From: an uncultured Deferribacteres bacterium
GTDB lineage: Bacteria; Zhuqueibacterota; Zhuqueibacteria; Zhuqueibacterales; Geothermadaptataceae
Assembly (NCBI GenBank): GCA_964014485.1
Contig: CAXHAT010000005.1
Location: 95-64,094 of the forward strand
DNA: 64,000 nucleotides
Direction of reading: 5' to 3'
The position numbers and the translations under genes were made by a program. Of this stretch, positions 3,857-14,019 are shown one piece after another; within the stretch, counting starts at the first letter, position 1, and every line of letters starts with the position of its first letter. Below the pieces are notes generated by a model. The model ran no database searches, was not told the origin of the DNA, and saw only the letters and a list, made by a program, of their open reading frames with translations.

Positions 3857-5275
3857 ATGACGACGACAATTCAGGATGTCATGAAGCTGGCCAAGGACAG
3901 CGGTTCGAAAATTATAGACCTGCGGTTTATGGATTTCCCCGGACTCTGGCAGCATTTTTCCATGCCGATTTCAAGCTTGAAAGAAGACGTCTTTGAGGAC
4001 GGCTTCGGCTTCGACGGCTCAAGCATTCGCGGCTGGCAGGCGATCAATGAAAGCGACATGCTCATCAAGCCGGATCCGACGACGGCGTTTATCGATCCTT
4101 TCATGAACCCGACGACGCTGGTGCTGGTTTGCGACGTATATGACCCGCTGACGCACGAAAAATACACGCGTTGTCCTCGCAGCATTGCACAAAAGGCGGA
4201 AGCTTATCTCCAGTCCACCGGCGTCGCGGACATTGCGTATTTTGGCCCCGAGCCTGAGTTTTTCATCTTCGACGATATTCGTTTTGACCAAAATGAGCAT
4301 TCCGGTTACTACTACGTTGATTCCGTCGAAGGCCGATGGAATTCAGGGCGGCCCGAAAATCCAAACCTGGGGTACAAGCCGCGATACAAGGAAGGCTATT
4401 TCCCCGTTCCGCCTTCTGACGCTTTCCATGATATTCGCAGTGAAATGTTGCTCACGATGGAACAAGCCGGCTTGACCGTTGAGTGCCACCATCACGAAGT
4501 GGCGACGGGCGGGCAGTCCGAAATCGACCTCAAGTTTCAGCCGCTGGTAAAAATGGCTGACCAGACGATGCTTTTCAAGTACATCATCAAGAACACGGCC
4601 CACAAACACGGCAAAACCGTGACGTTCATGCCCAAGCCGATTTATAATGATAACGGCTCAGGCATGCATGTTCACATGAGTTTTTGGAAAAACGAGCAGC
4701 CCTTGTTCGCCGGTTCCGGTTACGCCGGCTTGAGCGAGATGGCATTGCACGCCATCGGCGGCATTCTGAAACACGCTCCGGCTTTGATTGCGCTGACCAA
4801 CCCGACGACGAATTCATTCAAGCGCCTCGTGCCTGGCTATGAAGCGCCGGTCAATTTGGCTTATTCTCAACGAAATCGCAGCGCGGCTTGCCGAATTCCG
4901 GTTTACTCGCAAAGTCCAAAATCAAAACGGCTCGAGTTCAGATGTCCGGATCCATCTTGTAATCCTTACCTTGCTTTTAGCGCGTTGATGATGGCCGCGA
5001 TTGACGGCGTGCAGAACAAAATCCATCCCGGCGAACCGCTGGACAAGGATATTTACGATCTCTCGCCCGAAGAATTGGCCGACGTGCCTTCAACGCCGAG
5101 CTCGCTCGCCGCAGCCCTGGACGCTTTGGAGAAAGATCAGGATTTCTTGCTGCAAGGCGACGTCTTTACGCATGACGTACTCGAAACGTGGATTGCTTAC
5201 AAGCGTGAAAATGAAGTAGACGCCTTGCGTTTGCGCCCGCATCCCTATGAATTCGCGCTTTATTATGACATTTAA
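3857..5275 (+). CDS. glnA: glutamine synthetase type I (adenylylatable GSI-beta type)
   Basis: The 472-aa ORF is collinear with GSI by motif recall. The C-terminal block [16 protein letters not shown] matches the E. coli adenylylation-site block NLYDLPPEE (Tyr codon at 5054-5056). An SD-like gagaggag precedes the ATG. Confidence 0.95.
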
Positions 5276-5311
5276 CTGATGTTTCGCGCCCCGCGCAGTG
5301 TTTGCAATATT

Positions 5312-5341
5312 TGTAGAGACGCGATGCATCGCGTCTCTACA
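5312..5341. repeat. perfect 30-nt palindrome downstream of glnA
   Basis: tgtagagacgcgatg|catcgcgtctctaca is perfectly self-complementary. It is followed by agggggg, not a T-run. Confidence 0.9.
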
Positions 5342-5448
5342 GGGGGGAGCGGACGACGCAACAATCCAAGCGCGTTTATGTGCAACATCAGATTTAACTT
5401 TCATTGCAGGATGATTTCACACAAGATTTAGATGTGAAGCTCCACTAC

Positions 5449-5491
5449 AAATGCCTGGCTGTCGCGAAAGACGGTCAGGCATTTTTTGTTT
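5449..5491 (+). terminator. rho-independent terminator (probable glnA terminator)
   Basis: aatgcctggctgtcgcgaaagacggtcaggcatt forms a hairpin that is followed by ttttttgtttt. Confidence 0.7.
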
Positions 5492-5623
5492 TAGAGCATA
5501 TTGGCGTTTCTCCTTGCAAAGGCGTAGGCGGGAATCTGCTTGTCTTCGCCTTACTTTATGCGCTGTGACTTGCCTTTTACAGAAATAGGATTTTATTCTT
5601 ATTTCACACAATGGAAGAGGGAA

Positions 5624-6688
5624 ATGCCTGCCGACAAGCCGAAAATTTTTATCAGCCATTCCTGGAAAGACAAGGAAGTCGCGCTGAGACTCGAACGTGA
5701 TCTCAAAGCGGCGGGCGTTCAAGTTTGGGTTGACCACAGTGAAGCCCGCGCGGGCGATCTGATTACCAAGCGTGTGAACGCTGCTTTAACCTGGTGTGAC
5801 ACGCTGATTCTTCTATGGTCGCGATCCGCTGAGAAGTCCATTTGGGTCGAGCATGAGTGGGGCGTCGCCTTTGCCAACCATAAAAAGATCATTCCGTGCT
5901 TGCTGGACAATACAACGCCGCCGATTCTGTTGAGTAACAATGTCCGCCTCGATTTCCGCGATTACGAACGCGGCGCTTCGGAGCTGCACAAAGCTTTTGG
6001 CATAGAGCCGCCGGTTCTGAAGCAACCCCCAAAGCCCGCCCCGCAGCCGGAAAGGAAAACAAGCCAACCTCTAAAACGCCCGGCGCCGCCTCAGCCAAAG
6101 CAAAAAACGAAATCACAGCCACGACTCACGCCAAAAAATATGCTAACGATTGCATTGACTGCGCTTGTTGTCGTCGCGGTATATTTCGGCGTTCAGAATT
6201 GGATGCGAAGCTCGCCTGACACAAGTTTGTCGGAAAAGAGCGTTCAGGACATGCTGAAAAAACGTGGATTTTATGACGTAAATAAAAACCCGAAAGGCGA
6301 AGGGTTTGCGAATGTTTTCGAGAAGCAAGCCAACGGCCAGATCGTTTTTGATGCGGCGACCGGACTGTACTGGCAGCAAGGCGGCTCCTCCAAACACATG
6401 AATTATACAGAGGCTAAGGACTACATCGCAAAGCTCAATCGCAACAAATTCGCTGGCTATGATGATTGGCGCTTACCGACGCTGGAAGAGGCCATGTCGC
6501 TGATGGAACCGGAGAAAAAGAACGGCGACCTGTACATCGATCCGGCATTCGACAAAACGCAACGTTGGATCTGGACGGGGGATAAGCACAACGCGTCGTC
6601 GGGCGCCTGGAGCGTTGATTTCGATCTTGGCGGCTGCTATTGGAACTTCCTCGACTTCGACGACTACGTTCGTGCAGTGCGTTTCTGA
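5624..6688 (+). CDS. TIR domain - transmembrane helix - DUF1566 (Lcl C-terminal-like) domain protein
   Basis: I chose the ATG at 5624, preceded by ggaagaggg; the ORF track starts at 5540. N-terminal TIR_2-like block: KIFISHSWKDKEVALRLERDLKAAGVQVWVDHSE...LILLWSRSAEKSIWVEHEWGVAF. A Pro/Lys/Gln-rich linker follows, then one TM helix (MLTIALTALVVVAVYFGV). C-terminal DUF1566-like block: YTEAKDYIAKLNRNKFAGYDDWRLPTLEEAMSL...WTGDK...AWSVDF...DDYVRAVR. Confidence 0.75.
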   Translation: MPADKPKIFISHSWKDKEVALRLERDLKAAGVQVWVDHSEARAGDLITKRVNAALTWCDTLILLWSRSAEKSIWVEHEWGVAFANHKKIIPCLLDNTTPPILLSNNVRLDFRDYERGASELHKAFGIEPPVLKQPPKPAPQPERKTSQPLKRPAPPQPKQKTKSQPRLTPKNMLTIALTALVVVAVYFGVQNWMRSSPDTSLSEKSVQDMLKKRGFYDVNKNPKGEGFANVFEKQANGQIVFDAATGLYWQQGGSSKHMNYTEAKDYIAKLNRNKFAGYDDWRLPTLEEAMSLMEPEKKNGDLYIDPAFDKTQRWIWTGDKHNASSGAWSVDFDLGGCYWNFLDFDDYVRAVRF

Positions 6689-6908
6689 CAATCTTGGCTC
6701 TTTGGCGCTTTGAGTCATTTGGCTCTTTAGAGGGTGGAATACGAGACGAAGCGATTCTCAAAAAGCAGAGCTTTGATTATTCCACCCCCTGAAAAAATCG
6801 TCGTCGCGTCGTGAATGCGCCCATGTGCAAGGCCGTCCCAAACAAAGAATCGCGCGCAGCGCGCCTCGAATTTATCCGCCATTCTATAAAACATGAGGTT
6901 AAAAAACT

Positions 6909-9900
6909 TTGGCCTTCGAGTTTGACGATCTTGTTTCGACGGAAACAAGCGGCCTGATTCTTCAATCGCTGAATCATCGCGATATTCGCATTTTTGCGGA
7001 CAAAGTCCGTGGGTGGCGCTTGCGGTTTGCGCACGAGCAGCTCAAAAAGTTCATCGCTGATCTCGTCCCGGCCTTAGCGAATGCAGCGAGCGTCGAACGC
7101 GCTCTGATAAATTTTGAACATCTCTTTGATCGCAACCCGACTCCCCAAAAACTATTGAAAAAGCTGGTTCGTGAACGGCGCTTGCTGAAAATGCTCACCA
7201 TGCTTTTTGCCGGGAGCCAATTTCTGACGGAAATCGTGTTGCGCTATCCGGCGGCTTTGGCGCTGGTCGGCGAGCGTGAAAATCTAAAGCGGATATTGTA
7301 CGGCGAGCAGTTTTACGACCGGGCTTTGGCGGCGGCGCGTTCTGAAACCCGGTTCGACGACCAACATGACGCGTTGAGAAGATTCCAGCAACTCGAACTT
7401 TTGCGAATTGGCTGCAGCGATCTGTTTGGTTTTTCGTCGCTGCCCATCGTCGTGGCGCAATTGTCGAATCTGGCCATTGCGTTGGTGCGCGCTTGTCTGA
7501 TGATTTCAAAAGAAAGTCTCAAAGCGGAACCTTCCGGATTTGCCGTGATCGCTCTGGGCAAGCTTGGCGGACGCGAGCTAAACTATAGCTCCGACATCGA
7601 TTTGATTTTTATTGCCCGCTCGACGGACGTCGTTTTTCAACGCTTGGGGCGCAAGTTGATCGACGCGCTTTCAAGGACGACGGCTTGCGGTTTTCTTTAT
7701 CGCGTGGACATGCGGCTTCGGCCCTGGGGCGGGGTAGGCAGACTTGCGCCGAGCCTCGAAGAAGCGCTGAGTTATTTTAAAGACCAAGCGCGGATTTGGG
7801 AAAAACAAGCGCTGGTCAAAGCGAGAATGATTGCCGGAGACGACGAACTGGGCGTGGGTTTTCTGCGCAAAATGCGTCCCGAAATCTATGCGCTTGAGCC
7901 GGAAGATGTTCGAGCGCAAATTCGCGAAATGAAGGAAATCATTGAAGCCAGGCTAAAGAAAAAGGGCGTCACGGAAGGCGAAGTTAAAAACGGCCCGGGC
8001 TCAATTCGGGACGTCGAATTTGTCACGCAATACCTGCAATTGCGCTACGGCGCAAGGTTTCCTGAAGTGCGAAGTCGGAACACTTTGGATGTGCTCGCTC
8101 GGCTTTCGAACGCGCATCTGCTCTCGGAGCAAGACTATCGAACGCTTTCCGAAGGCTACACTTTTTTGCGAACTGTCGAGCATCATCTTCAAGTTCTCCA
8201 GAATCGCCAAATCCACACGCTCCCCAGAAACAAATCGGAAACGATGTACCTCGCGCGGAGAATGGGTTTTGCCCAGACAAACGGCGATGCGTTGAAAAAA
8301 CGCTACAAAAAACACAGCCTGGCGATTCGGGACGTCTATCGTCGATACATTTTGGCCGACGCTCCTCCCCGGGCCAATACGCCGGGCGTGCAAAGAACCG
8401 CAACGGCTGATGAAATGGTTTCTCGCCACGTGAGACGGATGAACGTTTCCTACGCGGCGATGTTTGCGTCGGAAGAGATCGCGGAACATGCTCGACTTGC
8501 CGAGAAAGTCAAAGGCTCGCATCTTGCGGTTGTTAAAAATGTTCTGTTGCCAAGCGGAAACTGGCGTTTAACCCTCGTCGGCTATGATTATCTAGGCGCG
8601 CTCTCCCTGATTTGCGGCTTGCTCTATCTTTACGATTTCGACGTGCTGGACGCGGCGATTTTTACTTATGAACGCGATATTGAAAAGGAATTCTCGAGCA
8701 GGCAAGATCAAACAACTCGGGGCAAGAAACTGAGCTCGCGACGCAAGCTGGTGGACGTTTTCACTTTGAGACCGGTGAAAGAAAAGTGCGCCGAGAATGT
8801 CTGGGAGCGCTATACTTCGGATTTGCGTTTTTTTATGAACGAACTGAAAAACCGCAAACACAACCAGGTTTACGGCGCTCTGGCCAAGCGCATGGCCGCG
8901 AAGTTTCAGCGTGAAGAAAAACCAACGGATGCGCTTTCTTTGCTGATTGACGTCAGCGTTGACAACACGGCCTCAGAAAAATATACCATGCTGCGAATCG
9001 ACGCGCCTGACACGGTCGGCTTTCTCTACGCGGTGACCAATGCGCTTTCGCTAAACGGCGTTTATATCGCGAGGATGAACGTCAGTTCGAAGGCGAATCG
9101 TGCGCACGACACATTGTTTGTAACCGACGCGGCGGGAGCAAAAATCAGCGATCCGACCAAAAGACGGCAATTACAATTGACGGTTGCGCTGATTCGGCAT
9201 TTCTTCTACTTGCTGCCAAATTCGCCCAATCCGGAATCGGCGATCCTTCATTTCCGGGCATTGATTTCACAGCTTTTTTCGCAGGAAAAATGGGTGGAAA
9301 AAATGGCGTCGCTTGAGCGCCCCGAAGTGATGAAAGCCCTGGCGCGACTGCTCGGTGTGAGTGATTTTTTGTGGGAAGATTTTCTTCGGCTCCAGCATGA
9401 AAATTTGTTCCCGGTGCTTAACAACATCAAAGCTTTGAAAAAGGCGAAATCCAAAGATGAATTAGATTCGGAACTCAGCGCGGCGCTGGAATCGTGCGAA
9501 AACTTGATCGAAAAACGAAAAGCGCTCAACGCCTTCAAGGATCGGGAGATTTTTCGTATCGATATGCGATACATTCAAGTGCTGGCGCAGGATTATCGGC
9601 GATTTTCAACTGAACTTTCCGATCTCGTTGAAGCGGTTGTAGAACATGCTTTTCAAATTTGTTTTGCCGAATGTTGCAAGGAATTGGGCCGCCCGACACT
9701 TGCCGACGGAAACGAAAATTCTCTGGTAATCTGTGCGCTCGGAAAATTTGGCGGCAGAGAAATCGGCTGCGCCTCCGACATCGAGCTTCTGTTTATTTAT
9801 CGTGGAGACGGCGCGACGGAAGGGCCGAGAGTCGCGTCAACTTCAGAGTTTTACACGCACTTCGTCACAGAGTTTAAGAAAACCATCCAAGCCAAAAAAG

Positions 9901-10589
9901 AGGGCGTTTTTGAGCTTGATCTGCGCTTGCGTCCCTGGGGGCGTGCGGGGAGCTTGGCAATTCCGCTCAACCTTTTCGAATCGTACTACGGCGCCGACGG
10001 CCCTGCGTGGCCCTATGAAAAACAGTCGCTCATAAGGCTGCGGCCAGTGAGTGGAGACAAAGCGCTGGCAAATGAGATTGTCGCGATAAGAGATCGATGC
10101 GTTTACCAAGGCGACGCGTTTGACGCCGAGGGTATGTACGCGATGCGCGAAAGACAATTACACGAGCTTGTGGAAGGCGGGACGTTTAACGCGAAATTTA
10201 GCCGCGGCGGACTCGTTGACCTGGAGTTTCTTGTTCAGGGCTTACAAATCAAACATGGCGGCGCCATGCCGGAAGTGCGGCAAAACAATACTTTTCTGGC
10301 CATGCAGGCGCTAAACAAAGCAGGCGTACTTTCCCAGGAACAGTTTCAGGAACTTTCCGCGGCGTATTTGTTTCTGAGCAGGCTCATAGAAGCTTTGCGG
10401 ATGGTTCGCGGCAATGCAAAAGACTTGGCCGTTCCGACCGTCGGTTCCGAAGCCTTTTCTTTTTTGGCGAGACGGTTGGACTACTTTGACGATCAACATT
10501 TACAAGAACATGTTCTTATGCATACGCTGAGCGTCAGAAGAATGCTTGCCGCCTTTTTTCCGGAAAGTACTCAGGCAAAAGTTTTGTGA
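6909..10589 (+). CDS. glnE: glutamine synthetase adenylyltransferase/adenylyl-removing enzyme with a central tandem ACT-like insert
   Basis: Two GlnE nucleotidyltransferase cores are present ([25 protein letters not shown] and [26 protein letters not shown]), each followed by a GlnE helical region. At 1226 aa it is longer than the ~950 aa of classical GlnE. The extra central region has two ACT-like units ([36 protein letters not shown] and [49 protein letters not shown]). The TTG start is uncertain. Confidence 0.85.
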   Translation: [1226 protein letters not shown]

Positions 10590-10598
10590 TCGCTCAAA

Positions 10599-11411
10599 TC
10601 AAGGTTTGGTAAATAAAGGCGCCGCCACAAAGCCAAAGCCTAAGCTCAGCCCCAGGGGACGCGTGGAAACGCCGCCGCTCCAAAACGTCTGTTGGTTGAT
10701 AAACCGAAGGCCGCCAACAGTGAAGCCGATCCCGTCTCTATCCGGCTTGTTCGAAGCAACGTAGTAAACGCCGCCAATCCCCCGCGTCTCTTCAGGATCG
10801 TATAATGCTTGAAATTTTTCCGAATGCGTCACGCCTACGCTTGCCGTCAGATACGTTTTAACCTCGAGGCGATACAAGACGCCGGCGTACATGCTTGTTG
10901 TCTGCATCTTAACCTCCAACGCCCTGTGTTTATATTCGTTTAGCGCCGTATCAAGGGAAACGTCATCGTAGAAGTTTTTTTGCTTCGAAAGCCTGCGGCT
11001 GCCCGACCAGCCCGCCGAAAACCCGAGGCGCGACTGGTTGAGATATTCAAATTGAAAACCATAACGTGCGGCCGGGAGAATCGCGCTATATTGCACAAGC
11101 CACACGCCATTGTTGGCGTAAATTTGGTTTTTTCGCTCTTCGTACCACTCCAATTTTGAGCGGCCGTTCTCTAAATCGAAAGTCACCAATCTTCCGTCGT
11201 CGCCGACGATTTTGTCTATTTCAGAAAGCTTGAATACAAGCGTATCTTTTTCTGTTGAAGCTTTTACGACATGCCGTTGTTTGGATTTGAGCAAGTGCGC
11301 CTTCACACGGTCGCCGTTTTTGAGTATAAAAGTGTCTTGTGCAAAAACGGCTAAGGGAATCAGGGAGAAGAAAATAGTTAGAAGTCGCATAAATTTTTTT
11401 GACGCGAACAA
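10599..11411 (-). CDS. secreted hypothetical protein (possible outer-membrane beta-barrel)
   Basis: 270-aa ORF with a signal peptide (MRLLTIFFSLIPLAVFAQ). The C-terminal half has alternating hydrophobic beta-strand-like segments. No family recognised. Confidence 0.5.
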   Translation of the reverse strand: MFASKKFMRLLTIFFSLIPLAVFAQDTFILKNGDRVKAHLLKSKQRHVVKASTEKDTLVFKLSEIDKIVGDDGRLVTFDLENGRSKLEWYEERKNQIYANNGVWLVQYSAILPAARYGFQFEYLNQSRLGFSAGWSGSRRLSKQKNFYDDVSLDTALNEYKHRALEVKMQTTSMYAGVLYRLEVKTYLTASVGVTHSEKFQALYDPEETRGIGGVYYVASNKPDRDGIGFTVGGLRFINQQTFWSGGVSTRPLGLSLGFGFVAAPLFTKP

Positions 11412-11829
11412 AAATGAGATCGATTTTGAGAAGGCTTTTCTGGTTCAAATATTATAAGGGCGCCGTCGCGTATTTGAGAAGTAAAATTCTGGTCATTCAA
11501 TTGTCGATTCGTTGAACAGGTTAGTGAAAATGTATTTGAATCTCGCTATATTTTTCAGTAGGTTAGCGCCATCTTCTTGTCGTCGGCGACAACCTGCAGC
11601 GCAACTGATGAAACAGATAAAATGATTTAATTGCCGCTTGTTCTACGCACTGCTTTTGACTATCCGGTAAATGAAAAACAGGGGGTTTTCAAACTGCCAA
11701 ACAACATTTGGGGCACTGTTGTTGTCATGAATATCAGGAAGATTTTCAGCAGCTATCTGATGACGGAATCTGGATTGCACCTTTGAAAACGTTTATGATT
11801 CGTTTTGCCTTGCAAAGGATTTGTTGAAA

Positions 11830-14019
11830 ATGATAAGATTCTTCAGTTTTTCTCGATCCCGCTTTGCTCATCGCCCCCTTGCGTTCTGGGCCGCCGCCTG
11901 TTTCTGCTTTGCGCCTTTTCCCGCCAAGTCTTTCCAAGACTCCGACTTTTCACAGACGTTCCCGACGCCTAAAATTCTGGAGCCCAATGTTGAATTCTGG
12001 AAAAAAGTGTACGGCGTATATGACGAAGATCAGGTGATGATTCATGACAAAGATGACCTCGAAGTCATCTATGAAGTCGTAAATTTTGAAGACTTGATTC
12101 CAAATCATGAATCCGTCAGTATGCGTCAAAAATGGAAGCGAATTGCGGAAGTTAAGAAGGGCTATGCAAAAGCGATTCGCTCATTGGCGGGAAAGATTGA
12201 CAGCAATGGAAAATTGAATGTGATGGAGCACCAGGTTTTGCAGGCGTTCGGCGGCTCGGTGACAAAAGACCGCCTATTGCGCGCCGCTCGGAACATCCGA
12301 GGACAGCAAGGCTTGAAACAAAGATTTCGCAAAGGAATAGAGCGCGCCGGACTCTACATGGACAAGATACGTAAGACGTTTCGTGAATACAACCTGCCGC
12401 CGGCGCTTGTCTACTTGCCGCATGTTGAATCGTCTTTCAATTACAAGGCTTACTCCAAAGCCGGCGCTGCGGGCTTGTGGCAGTTTACGCGCAGTTCAGC
12501 ACGAATCTACAAAATGAAGGTCAACTACGACATCGACGAACGCTTCGATCCAGTGGCGGCGACGGCTGCGGCGGCAAGGCACTTGGTCGGCAACTACGAA
12601 TTGCTGAAATCATGGCCTCTTTCAGTAACGGCGTATAATCACGGCCCAAACGGCATGCGAAGAGCAAAACGCCAGTTCGGCGACGATATGGGCACAATCG
12701 TCAGGCGATACAAAAGTCGCAGCTTCGGCTTTGCATCACGAAATTTCTACGCTGAGTTTTTGGCGGCTTATGAAGTCGCGACTAACTATGAAAAATATTT
12801 TGGGCCGGTCGTGCCGATGAAGCCTATCAAGTACCTTTCGTTCAAAACGAAAAAATACTACAGCGTCAGCACGCTCATGACAAAATTCGCCCTTACGAAG
12901 AAAGAGTTTCAGCGTTTTAACCCGGCGCTTCGTCCGCCGGTTTTGCGCGGGCAAAGGCGAATTCCGCGAAACTATACCCTGCATGTCCCGGACAGACCGA
13001 TGATCGATGAGAAAGCGGTCTGGGCGTCACTTTCGCCAGCCGAAAGTTTCGATGCGCAAGTGCATACGGATTGGTACAAAGTCAGGCGCGGCGACAATTT
13101 AGCGGCGATTGCACGACGCGTCAATTCATCGATTCCGACGCTCATGGAATACAACAATTTGGCAAATGCTCATCGCATTTACATCGGTCAAATCTTAAAA
13201 ATTCCGCCGAAAGAGAATGCCCGAAAACCTGAACCGAAGCCGTCGGTCGTACTCGCGGACATATCGCCGGTTAGACCGAAAACTTCGCCAAAGCCTGCCG
13301 TGACAAAAGCGCCAGCGCCAAAAGTTACCGTTAGCGACAAGACCGACGTCGGTTCGTCGCCGAGCAAAGCCGCATCGAAGAGTGAAAAATCCATTGAAAA
13401 GAAGCCGGTAATCGTTGAACTGCCGGAACTCCTGGAACCGACAAACGGTTTGGCGACGCCGATAACAGAAATCGCGCCGCCCAACATGCGACTTGAATTG
13501 GCGGCGGGAGAAAAAGCCGGTTACATTTTGATCGCTTCAGAAGAGCCGAGAGAAGAGGTTCGAGAAATAGGCGCGAAAATTTTTGTTCCGCAGCCCGTCT
13601 CGGAATGGATCGCCGTAGAGCCGGAAGAAACGCTTGGACACTACGCCGAATGGCTGGAAATTACCGCCCGCGAACTGCGACGCATTAACAATTTTGCTTC
13701 AAATCGAGAGATTCAAATCGGGCAGAAAATTCATTTGAGCTACGAAAAAGTCAATCCGGAAGAGTTTCAGCGCCGCAGATTTGAATTTCAGCAAAGCATA
13801 GAAGAAGATTTTCTGACCTCTTTTTCAATCGAAGGCGTTAAGACGCACACCGTCAAGCGCGGTCAATCGATTTGGTACATCACGAATCGCCTTTACGATT
13901 TGCCTTTGTGGCTCATCGTAAAATACAACCCCGGCAGAGAGTTGCGAGAATTGCATATCGGCGATCAGGTCAATATTCCGGTCGTTGTTGAAAAGCAAGA
14001 GCCGCAACGAGGCATGTAA
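11830..14019 (+). CDS. membrane-bound lytic murein transglycosylase D-like protein with LysM domains
   Basis: SLT catalytic block: LPHVESSFNYKAYSKAGAAGLWQFTRSSARIY. At least two LysM-like units are present (YKVRRGDNLAAIARRVNSSIPTLMEYNNL...IYIGQILKIP and HTVKRGQSIWYITNRLYDL...LHIGDQVNIP). I preferred the ATG at 11830 over the TTG at 11821. Confidence 0.85.
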   Translation: MIRFFSFSRSRFAHRPLAFWAAACFCFAPFPAKSFQDSDFSQTFPTPKILEPNVEFWKKVYGVYDEDQVMIHDKDDLEVIYEVVNFEDLIPNHESVSMRQKWKRIAEVKKGYAKAIRSLAGKIDSNGKLNVMEHQVLQAFGGSVTKDRLLRAARNIRGQQGLKQRFRKGIERAGLYMDKIRKTFREYNLPPALVYLPHVESSFNYKAYSKAGAAGLWQFTRSSARIYKMKVNYDIDERFDPVAATAAAARHLVGNYELLKSWPLSVTAYNHGPNGMRRAKRQFGDDMGTIVRRYKSRSFGFASRNFYAEFLAAYEVATNYEKYFGPVVPMKPIKYLSFKTKKYYSVSTLMTKFALTKKEFQRFNPALRPPVLRGQRRIPRNYTLHVPDRPMIDEKAVWASLSPAESFDAQVHTDWYKVRRGDNLAAIARRVNSSIPTLMEYNNLANAHRIYIGQILKIPPKENARKPEPKPSVVLADISPVRPKTSPKPAVTKAPAPKVTVSDKTDVGSSPSKAASKSEKSIEKKPVIVELPELLEPTNGLATPITEIAPPNMRLELAAGEKAGYILIASEEPREEVREIGAKIFVPQPVSEWIAVEPEETLGHYAEWLEITARELRRINNFASNREIQIGQKIHLSYEKVNPEEFQRRRFEFQQSIEEDFLTSFSIEGVKTHTVKRGQSIWYITNRLYDLPLWLIVKYNPGRELRELHIGDQVNIPVVVEKQEPQRGM

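Follow-up and report, generated by a model that had tools for sequence, protein, structure and literature searches.

A TIR–C-type lectin gene with a predicted membrane helix and a diversity-generating retroelement signature in a bacterium of a KSB1-like lineage

The stretch of DNA analysed here (hereafter the window; 64,000 nt of contig CAXHAT010000005.1, assembly GCA_964014485.1, from an uncultured Deferribacteres bacterium) carries on its forward strand, at positions 5624–6688, an intact open reading frame (ORF) for a 354-aa protein. In this protein an N-terminal TIR domain is followed by a disordered linker, a single predicted transmembrane (TM) helix and a C-terminal C-type-lectin domain of the Lcl_C/DUF1566 type, and the 3' end of the gene bears the signature of a variable region (VR) of the kind written by diversity-generating retroelements (DGRs). 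The open frame itself reaches from 5540 to 6688 (+) and begins with TTG; the ATG at 5624 agrees with the starts of the homologues. A preliminary description of the same DNA had put the domains in this order (TIR, Pro/Lys/Gln linker, one TM helix, DUF1566), with the TIR domain predicted to be cytoplasmic, and Pfam, hydropathy and the bias of lysine and arginine residues (K/R) around the helix agree with it. The HMM searches that it had suggested recovered both domains in the window protein (TIR_2, E 1.3e-23; Lcl_C/DUF1566 at residues 240–353, E 2.8e-22). The features of the locus are collected in Table 1.

Table 1. Features of the TIR–lectin gene and its flanks, in window coordinates (TM, transmembrane; DGR, diversity-generating retroelement; VR, variable region; TR, template repeat; IMH, initiation of mutagenic homology).
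Feature	Position	Strand	Basis
Intrinsic-terminator-like hairpin 3' of glnA, 15-bp stem and T-run	5449–5484 (feature bounds 5449–5494)	+	Sequence fold
Coding sequence of the TIR–TM–C-type-lectin (Lcl_C/DUF1566) protein P0001, 354 aa	5624–6688	+	ORF, Pfam, homologue search
TIR domain, residues 8–120, predicted cytoplasmic	5645–5983	+	Pfam TIR_2, E 1.3e-23; Foldseek
WxxxE motif, W74...E78; E78 the predicted catalytic Glu	5843–5857	+	HMMER alignment with AbTir-type WxxxE
Pro/Lys/Gln-rich disordered linker, residues about 125–170	5996–6133	+	Low pLDDT; composition
Single predicted TM helix M173–V190, N-terminus inside	6140–6193	+	Hydropathy, K/R bias, AlphaFold2 helix
C-type-lectin-fold domain, residues 195–353 (Pfam Lcl_C 240–353 and N-terminal extension), predicted periplasmic	6206–6682	+	Pfam, model, Foldseek
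DGR-type VR and constant scaffold; variable codons S330 to D347 (6611–6664)	6593–6697	+	Comparison with paralogue C34b
IMH-like 3' boundary of the VR, spanning the stop codon and ending ...GACAATC	6665–6693	+	Homologous to the end of TR/VR homology in confirmed targets; function inferred
Conserved non-coding element, three TTTG repeats about 10–11 nt apart, directly after the stop	6689–6728	+	14-gene alignment
Longer 3' flank common to C34b, C34a and C135c; inverted repeat with 10-bp stem (6732–6741/6778–6787) and 36-nt loop	6689–6873	+	blastn

The DGR signature is seen in a comparison of the window gene with C34b, a 547-aa paralogue without a TIR domain. Between position 6593 and the stop codon, 12 substitutions and one 3-nt indel separate the two genes; seven of the substitutions affect the first position of a codon and five the second, whereas none of the 31 third positions has changed. 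Further upstream in the lectin domain, differences affect 79 of 255 positions, among them 33 of 85 third positions. The variable codons of the window VR occupy the places of AAY codons in TR1 and TR2, two template repeats (TRs) found elsewhere in the source genome, and variation at positions 1–2 of AAY-type codons on a constant scaffold, as expected for a DGR target, is therefore present in the window gene. Because the scaffolds are twins despite the diverged upstream domains, a single template appears to have supplied both VRs at a time when the genes were already diverged. The window gene is thus DGR-written by descent, which is not the same as a demonstrated active target.

The same pattern was seen at the level of the family. 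The lectin core has a mean entropy of 1.30 bits in the family alignment, as against 2.52 bits for residues 321–348, where the hypervariable columns (330, 332, 334, 335, 337 and 339–347) are interleaved with the near-invariant W329, V331, F333, G336, C338 and VRAVR. Such an alternation of variable and constant residues fits one exposed face of a beta-sheet. The preliminary description had treated DUF1566 as a fixed, adhesin-like module, a view that has to be given up in the light of the signature in the VR and of the family members and paralogues that are DGR targets.

The VR ends at a boundary resembling an initiation of mutagenic homology (IMH) sequence, which is followed by a conserved element with three TTTG repeats. 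This combination of boundary (...GA-AATC) and TTTG element was aligned across 14 VR-bearing gene ends from eight genomes (loci L024, L027, L029 and L138–L147) and contains 34 invariant columns. The TTTG element is absent after TR1 and TR2, whose similarity to their targets ends exactly there, and the window gene retains it in its entirety. We therefore regard it as a candidate part of DGR target recognition, judging from its conservation and position in the sequences; no description of a TTTG-repeat element was found in the literature passages on DGR targets that were searched. The flank shared with C34b, C34a and C135c extends further (about 185 nt; blastn identity of 84%, 81% and 79%, respectively) and occurs nowhere else in the source genome; compared with C34b, 27 of 188 aligned bases differ. 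It folds no better than shuffled sequences (z-score 0.37) and has no Rfam match.

The relation of the family to DGRs was evident from the neighbourhoods of its members. Up to four genes on either side of 15 full-length homologues in public genomes were inspected, genes having been called with a simple longest-ORF script. A reverse transcriptase (RT) and/or bAvd gene lies within four genes in 4 of the 15 loci (L042, L043, L044 and L054): the TIR-Lcl_C gene directly follows the RT in L042, L043 and L044, and L044 and L054 contain bAvd. In 7 of the 15 loci the homologue has another Lcl_C gene next to it. Five TIR-Lcl_C genes have a TR in the same locus, including the homologues in L042, L043 and L054, and the mismatches between TR and VR fall almost entirely on template adenines (adenine/other: 14/0, 11/0, 12/3, 14/0 and 20/1). 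In a stricter survey of 74 loci, an in-locus template was found for 14 of 100 lectin copies, including 4 of the 23 TIR-linked ones; since the other 86 lack one, most copies must be remote from their template, orphaned, or located on short contigs. Three of the four Lcl_C-type DGR RTs (L042, L043 and L029) also show a MutS_I-like match at the C-terminus (E 3.8e-6 to 6.7e-9), and none is listed for the RT of contig C135 (L024).

The source genome (8.4 Mb in 465 contigs, 97% complete) contains 13 TIR_2 and 13 Lcl_C matches, with four genes carrying both domains. The window copy is the only one of these four with a helix; the other three TIR-Lcl_C paralogues have neither a TM helix nor a signal peptide. 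The N-terminal parts of the remaining Lcl_C genes, some with TM segments, comprise CHAT, NNH1-NACHT-LRR, nSTAND and multi-pass membrane types, one nucleoside-deoxyribosyltransferase-like type (a weak Pfam match, below the cut-off) and three without a Pfam match. Two cassettes with the order target–bAvd–TR–RT–target were found on contigs C135 and C74. TR1 differs from target C135a by 19 adenine and no other mismatches, and from C135b by 18 and 2. TR2 serves as a single template for four dispersed genes, namely C74a and C74b (17/1 each), a remote nSTAND gene, C30 (15/1), and a remote TIR-Lcl_C gene, C135c (11/1). In total, a cognate template was identified for 6 of the 13 Lcl_C genes, and one of these six is a TIR-Lcl_C paralogue of the window gene. 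No DGR part was found within the 64-kb window, all RVT_1 matches being on other contigs. The preliminary description had presented the gene as a single-gene system without a partner; this is incomplete, because the family is one of DGR targets and its partner is a trans-acting retroelement.

A third DGR is present on contig C94 (L149, G000:C94:16000-28588, about 6528–12357). The target, of 1182 aa, carries a tandem pair of FGE-sulfatase-like domains with one VR each (8818–8942 and 9805–9929), and the RT (11113–12126) is followed by the TR (12233–12357) near the contig end. It was considered as the source of the missing template and ruled out, as its VRs belong to another class, the FGE-sulfatase type. 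Further TIR fusions, located on contigs C3, C72, C128, C194 and C17 (loci L030, L032, L033, L035 and L036), are of the types pentapeptide-TIR, WD40-Roc-TIR, CHAT-TIR-AAA_35, TIR-NACHT-TPR and SEFIR/TIR-NACHT-TPR; the TIR fusions of this genome form a large conflict-system repertoire.

Comparison of structures assigned the N-terminal domain of the window protein to the TIR fold. The best Foldseek matches of the full model were the TIR domains of Hydra TRR-2, SPARTA, SARM1, Cat1 and AbTir (probability 1.00), and a sequence search of the PDB likewise returned only TIR chains. The motif KSIWVEHEW is present, and on alignment its W74 and E78 fall on the WxxxE motif of AbTir, in which W204 and E208 are functional residues and the E208A substitution abolishes NAD+ hydrolysis, according to passages of a preprint (bioRxiv 10.1101/2023.05.19.541320). 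E78 is invariant in all 116 aligned family members. The earlier statement that the domain keeps the conserved SxW...E glutamate is thereby borne out, and the residue is retained on alignment with a characterized TIR NADase. Judging from the modelled fold and the retained glutamate, the domain looks catalytic and is predicted to be an NADase.

At the same time, the protein could not be placed in a catalogued defence system. The Thoeris ThsB cut-offs were not reached (PF08937, 21.0 against 21.2; NF058526, 36.7 against 220), no NCBIfam model matched the window protein at its cut-off, and PADLOC returned domain-level TIR matches without any catalogued system, the best being SAVED_TIR (2e-12, residues 7–113). 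There is no adjacent ThsA, and the genes on either side are glnA and a GlnE-like gene, in agreement with the earlier remark that no ThsA-like partner is encoded nearby. Compared with the bacterial TIR NADases AbTir, ThsB, SPARTA TIR-APAZ and Cat1, the window protein has the same TIR fold, WxxxE motif and catalytic glutamate, but it lacks a ThsA, Argonaute or CARF partner, and sensing would be the task of the fused hypervariable lectin domain.

Given that Foldseek found only TIR matches for the full model, the lectin domain was modelled on its own (residues 195–354; pLDDT 95.1). The best match was the C-terminal domain of the Legionella adhesin Lcl (8q4e_A, E 8.7e-5), and next in rank came C-type lectin-like domains from snake venoms and mammals. 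According to passages of its description, the Lcl domain is a trimer and binds glycosaminoglycans (PMC11162425), and this paper was the only one returned by a literature search that paired DUF1566 with TIR. The similarity to Lcl (PDB 8q4e) is confined to the fold of this domain, with 18% identity over the aligned structure, whereas the window protein has no collagen-like repeats or type II secretion and possesses a DGR-type VR. With a TIR domain at the N-terminus, no signal peptide and only Lcl_C in common, it does not qualify as an Lcl-type collagen-like adhesin.

Between the two domains, the linker is poorly ordered in the AlphaFold2 model (pLDDT below 50 at residues 145–154 and 159–163) and is the most variable section of the family alignment (2.75 bits). 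It leads into the hydrophobic segment M173–V190 (best 19-residue Kyte–Doolittle mean 2.13), which overlaps a helix modelled at residues 170–190. Five K/R residues precede the segment within 15 positions and none follows it, and according to the positive-inside rule the N-terminus should therefore be inside. The protein opens directly with the TIR domain and consequently has no N-terminal signal peptide. The simplest predicted topology places the TIR domain in the cytoplasm, and not outside the cell, with the lectin domain outside or in the periplasm.

In the family as a whole the membrane form is in the minority. The protein search gave 1267 matches at E ≤ 0.001; among the matches listed, 116 of 120 carry both TIR_2 and Lcl_C, the named sources are mostly metagenome-assembled genomes of candidate division KSB1, and the best are only 42–47% identical to the window protein. 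With TM segments called across the family from hydropathy only, a hydrophobic helix in the linker was found in 25 of the 116 full-length relatives, 22 of which have more K/R before the helix than after it. The other 91 have neither helix nor signal peptide, and in these relatives the lectin domain should therefore be cytoplasmic. On a FastTree tree the TM trait requires 10 parsimony changes, at least five of which are forced by well-supported branches. A survey of TIR-TM-DUF1566 fusions had been proposed in the preliminary description; this layout does exist beyond the window, although as a minority. The homologues are not embedded in adhesin operons. They are found in DGR cassettes or in variable neighbourhoods, where they often adjoin toxin–antitoxin (TA), restriction–modification (RM) and HEPN genes (15 homologue loci).

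Based on these results, we consider that the window gene probably encodes a membrane-anchored variable protein of the DGR class, namely a TIR sensor-effector with a DGR-written lectin face. With the IMH-like boundary and the TTTG element as guides, a DGR acting in trans would copy an adenine-rich TR into the gene's 3' end. Mutagenic retrohoming of this kind would randomize about nine codons within the last ~20, which encode the putative ligand-binding face of the lectin domain. This face may bind an external or periplasmic ligand, such as a component of a phage, of a foreign cell or of the envelope, with binding expected in the cytoplasm in most relatives. Binding would cluster the protein, and the TIR domains might then come together to cleave NAD+ or to produce a nucleotide signal, with the result that the cell would be arrested or killed. 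The domains, their folds, the catalytic residue, the DGR signature of the VR, the cis element, the cassettes and the role of a TIR paralogue as a target are shown by the analysis, whereas topology, ligand, clustering, enzyme activity and an immune role are inferred. Since the writing template is missing from the assembly, the gene is either served in trans by an unassembled DGR or recently orphaned. As for the current diversification of the window copy, we see the chances as roughly even, leaning to "not shown."

A number of observations weigh against this reading. The NADase activity, oligomerization, ligand and topology are predictions only, the topology being based on hydropathy and charge bias only. 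According to Pfam, the immediate neighbours are housekeeping rather than defence genes. The strong conservation of the lectin core outside the VR could instead mean that this domain has a conserved partner. The window VR differs from TR2 by 15 adenine and 22 other mismatches and gives no useful alignment to TR1, and it is therefore not a current copy of either template; moreover, several bases of its IMH-like boundary are unlike those in the TR2 targets. A search for further copies of the scaffold found none in the 8.4-Mb assembly or in the metagenome_contigs and viral_contigs collections, for which the queries were the constant 24-mer at the end of the VR and scaffold patterns. Nor was the scaffold found in 28 related genomes by an order-wide DNA search (29 genomes, eight of which matched), which returned the boundary and TTTG element only. 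The tallies of 24 of 31 and 8 of 29 genomes with a match include the unpublished G016 and/or G023, and the other claims do not rest on them. Ongoing variation is without direct support: the Logan contigs (three runs of one study) have a depth of 2–15, and none bridges 6652–6673, these short pieces being uninformative on polymorphism of the VR.

The missing template also suits the assumption that the lineage has since lost the DGR by which the VR was written, leaving a membrane TIR sensor of fixed specificity or a gene drifting to loss of function. We regard this course of events as possible but rather doubtful. Neither the assembly nor the public collections that were searched yielded a cognate TR; 7 of the 13 Lcl_C genes of the source genome are without one, and 86 of the 100 C-type-lectin copies in the 74 related loci have none within the locus. 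On the other hand, the gene has kept E78, an undamaged reading frame and the cis element; the assembly is in 465 fragments, and repeats of the TR type often go missing. The scaffold is identical to that of C34b (0 of 31 third positions) in spite of the differences in the flank (27/188) and in the upstream domain (79/255), which implies that both VRs were overwritten after the genes had diverged. At the opposite extreme, the gene would be a working anticipatory trans-membrane immune receptor, whose periplasmic lectin face is continually re-randomized in trans and wired through one helix to a TIR NADase. It would then be one of at least six to thirteen dispersed sensors per genome (TIR, CHAT, NACHT and nSTAND), all marked for retrohoming by the TTTG cis element, and their chassis would have crossed the membrane repeatedly by gain and loss of the linker helix. 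This extended proposal is tentative, and we would not expect it to hold in full.

Two further explanations dispense with either the retroelement or immunity. The preliminary description had suggested a stand-alone envelope sensor, in which a fixed adhesin-like DUF1566 domain is coupled to TIR without any partner system. The architecture and predicted topology fit this suggestion, as does the lack of a DGR part within the window; nevertheless, the C-terminus has the DGR signature, paralogues and homologues are demonstrable DGR targets, 91 of 116 relatives have no TM helix, so that location at the surface is not inherent in the domain, and there are neither collagen-like repeats nor a secretion signal. 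We consider it the least probable of the explanations, with very little in its favour. Hardly more probable is a role outside immunity, in which an aggregating lifestyle would call on the diversified lectin tip for self/non-self or cell–cell recognition, and the TIR domain would be a signalling scaffold and not a suicide NADase. The source genome is rich in STAND, CHAT and TIR fusions, as is typical of bacteria with complex lifestyles, and some TIR domains do act as scaffolds. Passages of the literature tie such repertoires to multicellularity (PMC7159879; PMC10907252). However, the catalytic glutamate is invariant in all members of the family alignment, which argues for enzymatic activity, and TA, RM and HEPN genes are frequent neighbours of the homologues.

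The favoured reading, that of a membrane-anchored, DGR-written TIR sensor-effector, agrees with a sensor design that is already in print. According to the passages available, DGR targets that combine TIR, CHAT, NACHT or nSTAND with a C-type-lectin domain (CLec), in the cytoplasm or periplasm, have been proposed to be antigen sensors (Dore et al., 2024; PMC10907252); similar variable proteins are known from cyanobacteria (Vallota-Eastman et al., 2020; PMC7517822), and such targets have been described within conflict systems (PMC7159879). In common with the sensors of multicellular bacteria (Thiohalocapsa PB-PSB1 and relatives) and of cyanobacteria, the proteins considered here have a C-terminal CLec VR rewritten by a DGR, N-terminal conflict domains (TIR, CHAT, NACHT or nSTAND), one TR for several targets, some of them remote, and predicted locations on either side of the membrane. 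They differ in that the lectin is of the DUF1566/Lcl_C type instead of the FGE-sulfatase type, the architecture is a minimal TIR-(TM)-CLec without an NTPase or vWA/MoxR partner, the host belongs to a KSB1-like lineage, and for the window copy the assembly contains no cognate TR.

In passages of a survey of DGRs, DUF1566-type VRs were recorded for 51 of 372 elements, remote targets were catalogued, and the targets were mostly surface proteins (Wu et al., 2018; PMC5758913). [quoted passage not shown] With animal Toll-like receptors the window protein has in common the predicted layout of an outside sensor joined by one TM helix to an internal TIR domain; however, the TIR domain comes first in the chain and is predicted to be enzymatic, and the sensor is a lectin and not a leucine-rich repeat (LRR) ectodomain. 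This resemblance is one of analogy only, with no homology of the whole proteins.

DGR-diversified antigen sensors represent a recent proposal, according to which bacteria hypermutate the binding tips of their immune receptors, in much the way that adaptive immunity does. The TIR-Lcl_C family provides an unusually simple test object for this proposal, consisting of a TIR domain and a lectin tip, to which some members add a membrane helix. The window copy leaves the concept unchanged, and its interest is local: it adds a clear case of a sensing tip predicted to lie on the periplasmic side, a candidate targeting element that is conserved, and a VR whose template is missing.

The surroundings of the gene were found much as they had been described: it stands alone between glnA (3857–5275) and a GlnE-like gene (6909–10589; 1226 aa), after a hairpin that resembles an intrinsic terminator and that, by its sequence, is predicted to isolate the TIR-lectin gene from glnA transcription. 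The view that it was inserted between glnA and glnE has found no confirmation. In a synteny search covering 12 relatives, the GlnE-like gene was detected in three, the other nine having no match at E ≤ 1e-30, and in all three no glnA was found within 7.5 kb upstream. Consequently, there is no known conserved pair that the gene would have interrupted, and "between glnA and glnE" is a description of the source genome, not a demonstrated insertion. An Rfam scan of window positions 5200–7000 gave no match close to the threshold. A perfect 26-nt palindrome lies at 5314–5339, about 40 nt past the glnA stop codon and upstream of the terminator hairpin. At 1226 aa, the GlnE-like protein exceeds the usual length of GlnE, and it carries an ACT-like domain at residues about 682–757, between its two nucleotidyltransferase halves.

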